Shown: positions 52,124-55,469 of the stretch, piece by piece
Numbering within the stretch: position 1 is the stretch's first letter
Layout of the letters: each line of letters begins with the position of its first letter
From: Candidatus Hermodarchaeum yapensis
Lineage (GTDB): Archaea; Asgardarchaeota; Hermodarchaeia; Hermodarchaeales; Hermodarchaeaceae
Direction of reading: 5' to 3'
Length of the DNA stretch: 64,000 nt
NCBI GenBank assembly: GCA_016840405.1
Contig: JAEOSK010000009.1
Coordinates: 1-64,000 of the forward strand
Position numbers and translations under genes: made by a program
The notes under the pieces: model-generated
Told to the model about the DNA's origin: nothing
The model's database searches: none
Seen by the model: only the letters and a program-made list of their open reading frames with translations

Positions 52124-52363
52124 GCGGACTTGGATGAGAACGGTACAGAAGAGCTGTGGTGGTCGATAAAAGCTTTGTGCCTTAATGTAGGCGGAGCTCT
52201 GTTTGGTTTTGTTTCGATACTATAGTGCGAAACTCTTGTGGTGTTTAAGTAATCAAATCCGGATTCATTGTTGGTGAAAATTATGTATCCAATACCAGGA
52301 ACTGAAATCGGTCCATTGATGGCAATCTTTTGGGTTTTCTTTACTGTGCTGTTCTACGTCCTG

Positions 52364-53404
52364 TCACGTTTGGCGTAGGAGCCGCATGAGGGCACGAGGT
52401 ATCTCCGTGTATGAGTTGACTTTGATATAGCGTCCCCTACCAAGCTGGGCAATCTGCTGGCAGGTTTCTTCACCTTGCGGATGTGTACCTGGTGTTTGTA
52501 ATACATGGAGATTGTGATACTTCCGTGCGTGGGGCTCTGGTGGTCCACCACGGTTGGCGATGCCATCGGTGATGAGGATAGCCCAAGATTCTTGTCGGTG
52601 AACACGTTGGTATTGAGTAAATGCAGTTTTTAGGGCATCGGCAATGTTGGTGTAGCCCGCAGGTTCTGTATCAAGGATTGTATCAACGATAGTATCTATT
52701 GTAGTGGGTTGATCGATGGTTTTGATAATGCTAGCAACGGTGTTGAAAGCAACAAGGGCATACTTGTCATGACGTAGGTGATATGCCGCAACAGCGGCTG
52801 CTGTAGCGGCTGTAAGAAGTTTTGTCCCGGCCATGGATCCGGAGGTATCTAAAATGATTGTGCCAATTTTTTTCCGTGCTACTCGTTCAACACCGACGAT
52901 TTCATTATAATTCACATAGTCGGGTTCTAGGAGTGTTTCTTCCAATGTTGCATCAAGGTCAAATTCGTCAAGACCTGGGTAAAAAGGGACGGTTTTGATA
53001 GTTTCAGGGCGCAGTCCACGTCCACTGATTCTTAGAGCTGAATGAATTATGGTAGCACGGGCCAGCTCACGAAATTTCTGGCGGTATTGTCCACGAATTT
53101 GATGTCGGAGTTGAAAGAAGAGTAGTGGTGCAGCAACATTCCCTTCATGGGCAGACTTTGCAATCAGGTGAACACCGTCTTGACTTGAAATGGCTTCACT
53201 TGTAGCAATAGGTTGGAGCTGAGCGAGGGCTTGTAATGCAGTGACATTTCTTTGTTCTATGGCAAGTTCAGCCATTTCTTTTGCTTTGGGGTAATCAAAA
53301 GTACGACCTAAACGGAGGTAGTATTGGAAATCACGTCCATTGGCTCTGATTTCCGATTCGAAGAGTTTCTCATCTGAGATGGTTCCGGAGAGAACGATGG
53401 GCAC
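52364..53404 (-). CDS. von Willebrand factor A domain protein (possibly made as a MoxR fusion)
   Basis: MIDAS DTSGSM, 'DLDATLE', GYTN, LITDG. Confidence 0.88.
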   Translation of the reverse strand: MPIVLSGTISDEKLFESEIRANGRDFQYYLRLGRTFDYPKAKEMAELAIEQRNVTALQALAQLQPIATSEAISSQDGVHLIAKSAHEGNVAAPLLFFQLRHQIRGQYRQKFRELARATIIHSALRISGRGLRPETIKTVPFYPGLDEFDLDATLEETLLEPDYVNYNEIVGVERVARKKIGTIILDTSGSMAGTKLLTAATAAAVAAYHLRHDKYALVAFNTVASIIKTIDQPTTIDTIVDTILDTEPAGYTNIADALKTAFTQYQRVHRQESWAILITDGIANRGGPPEPHARKYHNLHVLQTPGTHPQGEETCQQIAQLGRGRYIKVNSYTEIPRALMRLLRQT

Positions 53405-53410
53405 GTCATC

Positions 53411-53443
53411 GGAGGCAGGGGCCTCCTCAGCGATTAAAAATTT
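53411..53443 (-). promoter_or_regulatory. Candidate -1 programmed frameshift signal
   Basis: A_AAT_TTT immediately before the MoxR stop; GGAGGC/GCCTCC hairpin downstream; -1 frame is open into the vWA ORF. Confidence 0.65.
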
Positions 53444-54282
53444 GCTAACACAGCTTTAACGAGTGTTTTGATGACCTCGATTGCAGATTTCTGCGCGTCA
53501 TCGTGTAGTTCAATTTTCGGGACAAGTGACATGATGGCTGCTTGTTCCCACACATCGTAACCTTCACCAGGTAGTTGTGTGTAGAGACTTGTAATATCGA
53601 TTGCGCCCCGAACGCTAGCCCCGCGACGAATGTCTGTATAATCACGTGTTGCTCGGGTGATAGCCACGGCCAATTCTACGATTTCCTTGTCTTCAACTCC
53701 AGTATTGATATGAACGATTTCTTTTTCTTCAGCTTCGGTATGATAGTCGAGATAAAGCCAGACGTAGCGATCCCGTAGAGCTTCTCCGAGTGGTGTTACA
53801 CCTACGCTGGCCTCAGGATTTTGGGTAGCGATTATTCGGAATCCATTTTTTGCTTTTATAGTGCCTAGCTTTGGTACATGTAACGTTCCCTCGTCCATGA
53901 CTGGGAGAAGTGTATTCTGTGTTGCTTCTGGCATACGGTTAATTTCATTAATGAAAAGCACTCCACCTGTTTCCATCGTTTCTACAAGAGGACCGGGAAC
54001 GAAGGTGTCGCGGGTATATCCGTTTTTGAGTACAACCGGGGGATCGAACCATCCCACTAGCTTCGCTGAGGTATAGCGTTCATCTCCATCCACACGGAAA
54101 AATGAACGTCCTAAGAAATTAGTAATGGCAGAGGCGATTGTGGTTTTCCCGACACCAACTGGGCCTTCGATGAGCATGTGTTTATCTGCCTTATCGGATG
54201 CTAGACATTGCGTAATAAGGTCTTGGCGACCAATGATTTTATATTCCCGTTGAATTGTTTTGATGTCTTTGGAGAGGACCAT
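53434..54282 (-). CDS. MoxR family AAA+ ATPase
   Basis: EGPVGVGKT, INEINR, ATQNP, ALRDR, GASVRG. Confidence 0.92.
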   Translation of the reverse strand: MVLSKDIKTIQREYKIIGRQDLITQCLASDKADKHMLIEGPVGVGKTTIASAITNFLGRSFFRVDGDERYTSAKLVGWFDPPVVLKNGYTRDTFVPGPLVETMETGGVLFINEINRMPEATQNTLLPVMDEGTLHVPKLGTIKAKNGFRIIATQNPEASVGVTPLGEALRDRYVWLYLDYHTEAEEKEIVHINTGVEDKEIVELAVAITRATRDYTDIRRGASVRGAIDITSLYTQLPGEGYDVWEQAAIMSLVPKIELHDDAQKSAIEVIKTLVKAVLANF

Positions 54283-54402
54283 TAAAGTTCACCCTGATGC
54301 GTTTTGGGAGCCGTCCCTCTAAGTAAAGTGTTTGGGTAGAACAGCAATCGAATAGAAGAGAAAAAAATGTTTATTGGTAAGGAAAATCATAATTAAAGGC
54401 TA

Positions 54403-54499
54403 GCGGAGTTGGCGGAGCGGTAACGCGCTGGACTCGAGATGACCGAGTCATCCAGTGACCTTCGTGGTCGCAAGGGTTCAAATCCCTTACTCCGCGCCA
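54403..54499 (+). tRNA. tRNA-Ser(CGA) with an 11-nt intron (54439-54449, position 37/38)
   Basis: GCGGAGT/ACTCCGC acceptor, G73, long variable arm, CTGGA/TCCAG stem, CTCG/CGAG splice helix. Confidence 0.9.
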
Positions 54500-54512
54500 C
54501 TTTCCTTTTCTG

Positions 54513-55469
54513 CTATATCACAAGGTCGGCTATGTCAATACTCGATTCAAAAATTCGTTCCACATTATGGATTACCCGATCGAACACTGGTAAAACAGAC
54601 AAATCCTGTCTCGCTAGCACTTCAGTAAGTTCGAAAACCAGTTTAGAAATCGATTGTTTCTGGGCAATTACCTTTCGAGCTCGAACACTATTTTGTTGGA
54701 GGACAGCTGTAATTGCTTCTCGATGCGCGCGTAAAACTTGATCACTGAGTTTTGTTAATACTTGTGAAAACGGCCGCGGAGGAAAAATATACCCTTCTGT
54801 GACTACTTGTTCTGCTATACTCGCACACCCATCTGCAATTGCTTCTACTTCCTTTGCGACCAGCCGATAATCCAAGAGGTTGAGTGGAGAAAGCAGTAAA
54901 TCACCACTTGGTGAGGCAATTGCTTTCCGAAGTTGTCGGACGACCAAGAAATACAACCGATCTACTTCCCGATCTCGGGCAATAACATCTTGTGCCAGCT
55001 CTTGGTCATTACGAATAAACGCATGAATCGCGTCTTCGTGCATCTTTGCTGCAATCCCATAGGTTCGCCGTAAATAGGTCCGTAAATCGATACTCCTGGG
55101 AATCATACACTGCAAAGTCATGCTAGAGGCTTCTTCTTCCATAATTTCAACTCCGACAAGGAACTCAGCCATTCCTTTCACTTCGCGCTTCAAGGTGGGC
55201 GTCATCGCTTCTCCGAGATTAACTTCAATCACATCGTTGCCAGCCAAATAACAAGCAAGTATGTTTCGAGAAACATTGGATGGATCCGAGATAACACTAC
55301 GGAGTCGAAGTGGTTCCTCTTCAAGTCTAGGATTGATGATAAGCATTCCATCTGCCCGTTCATGAACCAAAATCATTGAACCTTTCTTTAGTCCCTGTTC
55401 CTCCACCCACTGCTTTGGAACCGAAAGAAGAAATGAAGCTCCCACACGTTGTAGTTTCCGGGCTTCCAT
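54513..55469 (-). CDS. AbrB-PhoU phosphate uptake regulator
   Basis: 'RKLQRVG.S.LLSVPK.W' AbrB domain; PhoU repeats 'DREVDRLYF'. Confidence 0.88.
   Translation of the reverse strand: MEARKLQRVGASFLLSVPKQWVEEQGLKKGSMILVHERADGMLIINPRLEEEPLRLRSVISDPSNVSRNILACYLAGNDVIEVNLGEAMTPTLKREVKGMAEFLVGVEIMEEEASSMTLQCMIPRSIDLRTYLRRTYGIAAKMHEDAIHAFIRNDQELAQDVIARDREVDRLYFLVVRQLRKAIASPSGDLLLSPLNLLDYRLVAKEVEAIADGCASIAEQVVTEGYIFPPRPFSQVLTKLSDQVLRAHREAITAVLQQNSVRARKVIAQKQSISKLVFELTEVLARQDLSVLPVFDRVIHNVERIFESSIDIADLVI

Follow-up and report, generated by a model that had tools for sequence, protein, structure and literature searches.

A predicted programmed -1 ribosomal frameshift between a MoxR-type ATPase and a vWA domain in Asgard archaea

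We analyzed a stretch of 64,000 nucleotides (nt) from Candidatus Hermodarchaeum yapensis (GenBank assembly GCA_016840405.1, contig JAEOSK010000009.1, positions 1 to 64,000 of the forward strand; hereafter the window), in which a minus-strand pair of open reading frames (ORFs), an AAA_5/MoxR-type ATPase ORF followed by an ORF with a von Willebrand factor A (vWA) domain, meets at positions 53402-53445. From the sequence comparisons described below, the two ORFs are most probably a single recoded gene that would yield both an ATPase and, by a programmed -1 ribosomal frameshift, an ATPase-vWA fusion. Comparison of related loci establishes, at the level of sequence, the slip site, its phase, -1-frame coding right after the site, a covarying hairpin and a fused protein in other archaea. 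That slippage occurs is what we infer from these features, and its efficiency is judged by analogy with ChlI/ChlD.

The two frames and their junction

The ATPase ORF (53434..54282, minus strand, frame 0) encodes 282 amino acids (aa) with an AAA_5 domain at approximately 53767-54180, and its Pfam matches (AAA_5: 4.6e-24, 85.4 bits; AAA_3: 1.1e-16) identify it as an ATPase of the MoxR/AAA_5 type. The vWA frame is the -1 frame of MoxR and is open from stop to stop over 363 codons (52364..53455, minus strand), reading SCVSKFLIAEEAPASDDVPIVLSG. The portion that would be read after a shift (52364..53437, minus strand; 357 codons and a stop) runs from an acidic linker (LIAEEAPASDD...) through a helical middle region to a vWA/MIDAS domain (approximately 52400-52858). 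In Pfam this frame matched VWA_2 (4.4e-11), VWA (4.6e-08) and VWA_CoxE (1.8e-05); the MIDAS motif D-x-S-G-S is intact, and D203, S205, G206 and S207 are invariant in an alignment of 15 sequences. The two ORFs overlap by 22 nt in the window and by 10-118 nt across all 83 loci in -1 phase described below.

On the minus strand, the junction reads GTG TTA GCA AAT TTT up to the frame-0 stop codon TAA (53434..53436), continues with TCG CTG A into the hairpin GGAGGC CCCT GCCTCC, and leaves it with GAT GAC GTG CCC. The slippery heptamer A_AAU_UUU (53437..53443, minus strand), with AAU as the P-site and UUU as the A-site codon, lies immediately 5' of the stop. The hairpin GGAGGC-CCCU-GCCUCC (53411..53426, minus strand), which is the candidate stimulator, has a 6-bp stem and begins 7 nt from the stop codon and 10 nt from the heptamer; its 5' arm is a GGAGG tract resembling a Shine-Dalgarno (SD) sequence. 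The first canonical start codon of the vWA frame is a GTG (53402..53404, minus strand) located 17 nt 3' of AGGAGG and 32 nt 3' of the stop; it is a possible independent start and is unconserved. The first-pass annotation of the window, which had proposed the frameshift, described a heptamer directly before the MoxR stop, a -1 frame without stops into the vWA ORF, a hairpin after the stop and a GTG 17 nt from an SD-like sequence held in that hairpin, and all four descriptions agree with the coordinates above.

In the proposed mechanism, most ribosomes would stop at the TAA and release the free 282-aa ATPase, and a fraction would slip back by one base on A_AAU_UUU. Slippage could proceed through re-pairing of tRNA-Asn and tRNA-Phe on AAA_UUU, or, while the A site holds the stop codon, through re-pairing of the P-site tRNA-Phe alone on U_UUU; the protein would be identical by either route. 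Shifted ribosomes would then read UUA AUC GCU GAG GAG via the acidic linker into the vWA/MIDAS domain, producing a fusion of 639 aa (282 + 357), and the hairpin 7-10 nt downstream would most likely pause the ribosome over the slip site. By analogy with ChlI/ChlD, the ATPase-only and ATPase-vWA forms may assemble together in proportions that the frameshift determines.

Conservation of the junction in other genomes

To gauge how often such a junction arises by chance, crude ORFs of at least 150 aa were collected from this genome. A perfect X_XXY_YYZ heptamer was present within the last three codons of 40 of these 2208 ORFs, and in two of the 2208, the window locus being one of them, such a heptamer was combined with a -1 frame that stays open over 200 codons or more. 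The single-genome evidence is weakly above chance; chance in one genome is non-negligible, and the case therefore rests on conservation. The other ORF (contig C39:73762-74236, plus strand, outside the window) carries the heptamer G_GGG_GGA with a -1 frame open for 384 codons, and may simply represent an overlap with a neighboring gene.

Two samples of loci were used. The vWA-frame protein was searched against 61 related genomes, with matches in 49 and 30 loci returned. A second sample was obtained by scanning species-representative genomes with a peptide pattern inside the vWA domain, i.e. with no selection on the junction, which added 64 loci; the records are labelled as Asgard archaea (Hermod-, Heimdall-, Hod-, Hel-, Borr-, Sif- and Thorarchaeota and 'Promethearchaeota') and, in one case, as Thermoproteota. 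The total was 95 loci with both genes; four further loci lay at a contig end and lacked the ATPase. The first-pass annotation had suggested checking whether its heptamer, hairpin and -1 phase recur in orthologs. The phase is not random: among the relatives from the first search it was -1 in 29 of the 29 loci with both genes, covering all 10 GTDB family codes sampled, and over the 95 loci it was -1 in 83 (62 distinct junction sequences), +1 in seven and in-frame in five, the five in-frame loci having been picked deliberately for long frames.

The slip site is conserved as well. Of the 62 distinct -1 junctions, 61 have the motif NAT-TTY 0-2 codons 5' of the stop (TTY to stop: 0 codons in 22, 1 in 37 and 2 in 2), with GAT (35), AAT (25) or CAT (1) as the P-site codon and TTT (57) or TTC (4) as the A-site codon. 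The sole junction without it, from a Helarchaeota locus, has A_AAC_CCT. Counting A_AAT_TTY, T_TTT_TTN and A_AAC_CCT, a perfect heptamer is present in 48/62 distinct junctions; the remaining 14 read [G/A]_GAT_TTT and keep the tetramer U_UUU. The invariant core among the relatives is the tetramer U_UUY. The P-site codon ends in T in 61/61 junctions, compared with 72% (1205/1676) of the other Asn and Asp codons of the same ATPase ORFs. Re-pairing requires a T at the end of the P-site codon, and this third-position T is never replaced. The identity of the stop codon is free (TAG 26, TAA 21, TGA 15 over the 62 junctions). At several loci the -1 frame opens just 13 nt 5' of the end of the frame-0 ORF, which confines the shift window to the motif.

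Substitution patterns were used to locate the point at which the coding frame changes; all counts are from pairs of related sequences and are non-independent. From -36 to -6 nt, 366 of 605 substitutions fell at third positions of frame 0; from 0 to +30 nt the pattern was mixed, with 353, 267 and 166 substitutions over the three phases; and from +30 to +60 nt, 669 of 914 fell at third positions of the -1 frame. These counts clearly show that coding constraint passes at the slip site from frame 0 to the -1 frame. An independent N-terminus of the vWA protein, named in the first-pass annotation as part of what would speak against a frameshift, is not apparent in many loci: no ATG, GTG or TTG occurs between the opening of the vWA frame and +45 nt past the stop in 32/62 junctions. 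Among the 30 sequences that lack a start over their first 57 nt, substitutions at codon positions 1, 2 and 3 numbered 21, 22 and 69, respectively. The sister species represented by L013, L014 and L015 lack the GTG, and no start precedes the one found 161-164 nt 3' of their stop, past a conserved SDD-x-PI-x-LSG-xx-SDEKL stretch.

For the hairpin, an alignment was made of 27 of the 61 anchored junctions, chosen for a visible hairpin and GATGA. RNAalifold predicted 5 pairs in these 27 sequences, 4 of them with compensatory double changes. A 9-pair helix had 79.6% of cells paired and a covariation score of 0.363, compared with 0.196 +/- 0.020 for shuffled alignments (0/500 shuffles reached it), and sliding the 3' partner by 1-3 columns lowered the score to 0.04-0.20. 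The base pair of the stem couples synonymous third positions of GAG/GAA with those of TCC/TCT (G-C in 20 rows, A-U in 5, U-G in 1 and a non-pair in 1, a shifted row). In 25/27 rows, 10 nt separate NAT-TTY from the stem, the other two rows being shifted in the alignment. Within this selected set the hairpin therefore covaries. In the window, the hairpin alone folds at -9.7 kcal/mol and the 81-nt region has a fold z-score of -1.81 (11/200 shuffles fold equally well). A search of Rfam over 53200-53650 gave no family at E ≤ 1. The hairpin was also considered as a transcription terminator and rejected: no T-run follows it, and no minus-strand terminator was predicted in 52200-54600.

Natural in-frame fusions, which the first-pass annotation had proposed to look for, exist. 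The ATPase matched 373 longer proteins at E ≤ 1e-20, of which the best 120 were described in detail; these 120 share 51-56% identity over 92-100% of the query and are mostly 582-635 aa long (outliers 504 and 711 aa), with AAA_5 in 120/120 and a vWA-type Pfam domain also in 118/120. Where hosts are named among these listed fusions, they are Bathyarchaeota, Nitrososphaeria/Nitrososphaerales, Methanomethylicia and Methylarchaceae; in TACK archaea, the same two parts form one in-frame protein of ~616 aa. One of them, P0002 (617 aa), matches the whole ATPase ORF to its last residue (...VLANF versus ...VLKEY) at 55% identity and then vWA-frame residues 65-361 at 34% identity, collinear with both ORFs. 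An Asgard in-frame fusion, L031, has 712 aa; its ATPase part is 51% identical and its vWA part 34%. As judged from these sequences, the fused ATPase-vWA protein is a normal gene product in other archaea. The EE...SDD motif of the linker is missing from the five TACK fusions inspected, which suggests that its conservation in Asgard archaea reflects a constraint at the RNA level.

When a tree was built from the ATPase part, with the TACK fusions as its root, every deep Asgard branch was in the -1 state and 5 state changes explained all 79 rows, although this was a quick tree in which many forks are unsupported. The seven loci in +1 phase are L053, L055, L056, L057, L058 and L087, from a Heimdall subclade, and L099. 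They keep AAG TTT TTT CGN in frame 0, and the junction lies ~12-15 nt 5' of the ATPase stop; no stop interrupts the +1 frame at the motif, and it reads SFFGP[S/N]E. An ATG occurs 10-13 nt after the stop in 5/7 of them, and none was seen in L087 and L099. Either a start of its own for the vWA frame or a +1 slip (from UUU to UUC, ahead of the CGN codon) could account for these loci. Another group, L033, L034 and L035 (genomes G056, G047 and G037) and L032 (G041), consists of divergent in-frame AAA_5-vWA proteins of ~644-659 aa on a very long branch, identity being 35-42% for the ATPase part and 27-32% for the vWA part; in family code f15, several further matches per genome have an open frame of ~640-680 aa. 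The L032-L035 group looks like a paralogous fused family that exists beside the frameshifted one.

The hairpin and its flanks (53406..53428, minus strand; GA at 53427-53428 before the stem, GAUGA at 53406-53410 after it) have a kink-turn-like layout, 5'-CUGA, stem-loop, GAU GA-3', that is, a stem, a 3-nt bulge GAU and tandem G.A pairs. GA and GAUGA are invariant columns of the 27-sequence alignment. The pattern GA-stem-NNN-GA was found in 36/62 junctions, compared with background rates of 2.3% in shuffles and 2.5% in windows elsewhere in these loci, and with stems of at least 5 pairs in 33/62 compared with 1.1%; the pattern is confounded with the -1-frame codons for Glu and Asp-Asp (E...S-D-D), and a non-canonical stem beyond the G.A pairs is unconserved by eye. 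A gene for L7Ae is present in the genome. These observations led us to a speculative proposal, which we consider possible but rather doubtful: the stimulator would be a kink-turn bound by L7Ae, a roadblock acting in trans to set the ratio of ATPase to fusion, and the junction would also have moved in evolution among -1 slip, possible +1 slip and in-frame fusion. The possible +1 slip would be that of the one Heimdall subclade, on UUU_UUU_CGN. The putative kink-turn may resemble an internal box D'/C' motif, L7Ae being a protein of both the ribosome and small nucleolar ribonucleoproteins. No paper on a natural frameshift stimulated by a kink-turn or L7Ae was found in literature listings and abstracts.

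Competing explanations

The strongest competitor is that of two ordinary genes, in which the vWA protein would start alone, either by termination-coupled reinitiation or at the GTG at 53404 (a TTG or ATG in relatives), and the -1 phase would be just the usual short overlap of genes in an operon. Candidate starts do exist in several clades, and some independent initiation is therefore possible. Most members of this genus (L013 excepted) have the GTG 32 nt 3' of the stop; the stop is TGA in 15/62 junctions, and a TTG overlaps it in 13 of those; and the Heimdall loci L020, L025, L030 and L059-L083 have a conserved in-frame ATG (RG[K/R]-M-DK...) 59-68 nt after the ATPase stop with AGAGGA before it, which could give a separate vWA protein besides the fusion. 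In most clades the stop is followed by a tract resembling GGAGG, and the ATG of five of the seven +1 loci can be counted on the same side. This purine-rich tract lies 7-12 nt 3' of the slip site (53422-53428 in the window, minus strand) and is seen by eye in nearly all clades, including a Heimdall subgroup without a hairpin; it may represent a reinitiation SD, Glu codons or a part of the stimulator.

None of these candidate starts is conserved, however; the 32 junctions described above lack any up to +45 nt, and L013-L015 lack any for 161-164 nt. Coding-type substitutions occur in the -1 frame 5' of every candidate start, also 5' of the Heimdall ATG. The overlapping TTG is a by-product, since the stop varies among TAA, TAG and TGA, and in the window the GGAGG is 17 nt from the GTG and makes up an arm of the hairpin. 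Two ordinary genes would also leave unexplained the invariant T of NAT and the fixed distance from slip site to hairpin. We consider this explanation unlikely.

The start codons just listed weigh against a frameshift, as do several other observations. The loci are mutually related, so the counts overstate their independence; seven of them are in +1 phase; and the 27 rows of the covariation alignment were selected for the hairpin they display. The 10-nt spacing of the hairpin is long for a plain hairpin and exceeds the 5-9 nt described as usual between heptamer and structure in -1 frameshifting in the cited part of a review of archaeal recoding (PMC8211752). It becomes 7 nt if the stop codon occupies the A site, and 6 nt, a normal spacing, if the GA flank counts as structure. 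A subgroup of 16 Heimdall sequences (GAT TTT TTC TAG AAGAGG...) gave no convincing common structure (RNAalifold: -3.96 kcal/mol), and the stimulator is therefore non-universal or of a different kind there.

A second alternative places the event in transcription. RNA polymerase stutter on the T-run would add one U to some transcripts, and the fusion would be translated from the edited mRNA. The slip motif does contain a T-run (T5 here, T6-T8 in many relatives), but just three T's are present in the A_AAT_TTC junctions (4/61: L013, L014, L015 and L019), and a conserved hairpin at a fixed distance is predicted by ribosomal frameshifting instead. We regard stutter as very unlikely. A pseudogene or an assembly error, to which a one-base frame break between the halves of a gene that is intact in other archaea might point, has a virtually negligible probability, given the same place and phase in 62 distinct junctions across the phylum, purifying selection on both halves, and contigs of four other metagenome runs that span the junction without indels and rule out an error of assembly.

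If the programmed frameshift is real, it would represent a phylum-wide case of recoding, anciently conserved, in the archaea most closely related to eukaryotes, and the annotation of many Asgard genomes would be corrected from two genes to one gene with two products. The natural variants (-1, +1 and in-frame fusion) would be available for testing the idea of a controlled stoichiometry.

Comparison with known systems

The ATPase was compared with families whose members are known to be frameshifted or paired with vWA proteins. Membership in ChlD/BchD was rejected (TIGR02031 BchD-ChlD: 25.3 bits, cut-off 499.55; TIGR02442: 30.9 and 36.4 bits, cut-off 779.45). The Pfam family Mg_chelatase reached 21.2 bits on the ATPase with no stretch passing alone, the best family being AAA_5, and in NCBIfam the best match was GvpN, below the GvpN cut-off. 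CobN/ChlH (PF02514) was not found in this genome (completeness 86%) by a search that was positive in 5/14 control genomes. The nearest solved structures in the PDB are AAA domains of midasin, followed by NorQ (E = 7.5e-13) and CbbQ. A special kinship with eukaryotic midasin was considered and dropped: the best PDB match (1.9e-39) sums three AAA stretches, and the vWA profile misses the MIDAS domain of midasin.

The dnaX gene of E. coli encodes long (tau) and short (gamma) forms of an AAA+ subunit through a -1 slip on a heptamer followed by a hairpin, and the two forms are assembled into a single complex. The short form is the shifted product of dnaX, and an SD-like element upstream contributes, whereas here the shifted product would be long and the SD-like tract is part of the downstream hairpin.

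CbbQ-CbbO, NorQ-NorD and RavA-ViaA are two-component chaperones of the MoxR-vWA kind, made as separate proteins. Like them, the window locus has a gene for a MoxR-class AAA+ protein adjoining one for a vWA/MIDAS adaptor, and the adjacent vWA domain carries the MIDAS motif D-x-S-x-S. To our knowledge, no link to frameshifting has been reported for MoxR-vWA chaperone pairs. We found no paper on a frameshift in this gene pair in the literature searched; one article that touches on both topics treats them as unrelated to each other in the part cited (PMC7911831).

Among archaeal genes, fucA1 of Saccharolobus solfataricus is also a cellular gene in two ORFs in -1 phase and combines a heptamer (A_AAA_AAT) with a putative stem-loop, according to the cited part of the 2021 review of archaeal recoding (PMC8211752). 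The same source describes fucA1 as frameshifted in two strains only and full-length in close relatives, whereas the arrangement described here is phylum-wide. In the portion cited, that review counts very few cellular frameshifts in archaea, naming fucA1 and halovirus genes, with 0 mentions of Asgard archaea (PMC8211752).

The closest parallel, already drawn in the first-pass annotation, is with the frameshifted chlD genes, and it is documented in the cited parts of two papers (PMC3711429, PMC9227772). The fs-chlD cluster comprises 23 fs-genes with -1 shifts on poly-A runs, from Pseudomonas, Burkholderia, Delftia, Herpetosiphon, Methanocaldococcus and Methanococcus (Antonov et al. 2013, PMC3711429), with up to 63% shifting in E. 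coli reporters and fused homologs elsewhere (PMC3711429). As in the window, the -1 shift is near the end of the AAA+ ORF, so that termination gives an AAA+-only small subunit and the shift an AAA+-linker-vWA medium subunit (PMC3711429; Kuznetsov et al. 2022, PMC9227772), in-frame fused homologs occur in other taxa, and the gene is annotated as two adjacent genes. The two systems differ in the slip site, which is based on U_UUY here and on the poly-A runs reported for the chelatase cluster (PMC3711429), in the hosts, which are Asgard archaea here, and in the AAA+ protein, which is MoxR/AAA_5 and not ChlI/BchI. The locus is therefore of the same kind as fs-chlD but belongs to a different ATPase family. 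If the frameshift occurs as proposed, it would extend to MoxR chaperone ATPases the chlD logic of one mRNA for both an AAA+ ring subunit and its vWA-bearing version, and would suggest that this logic is a general way of fixing the stoichiometry of adaptor to motor.

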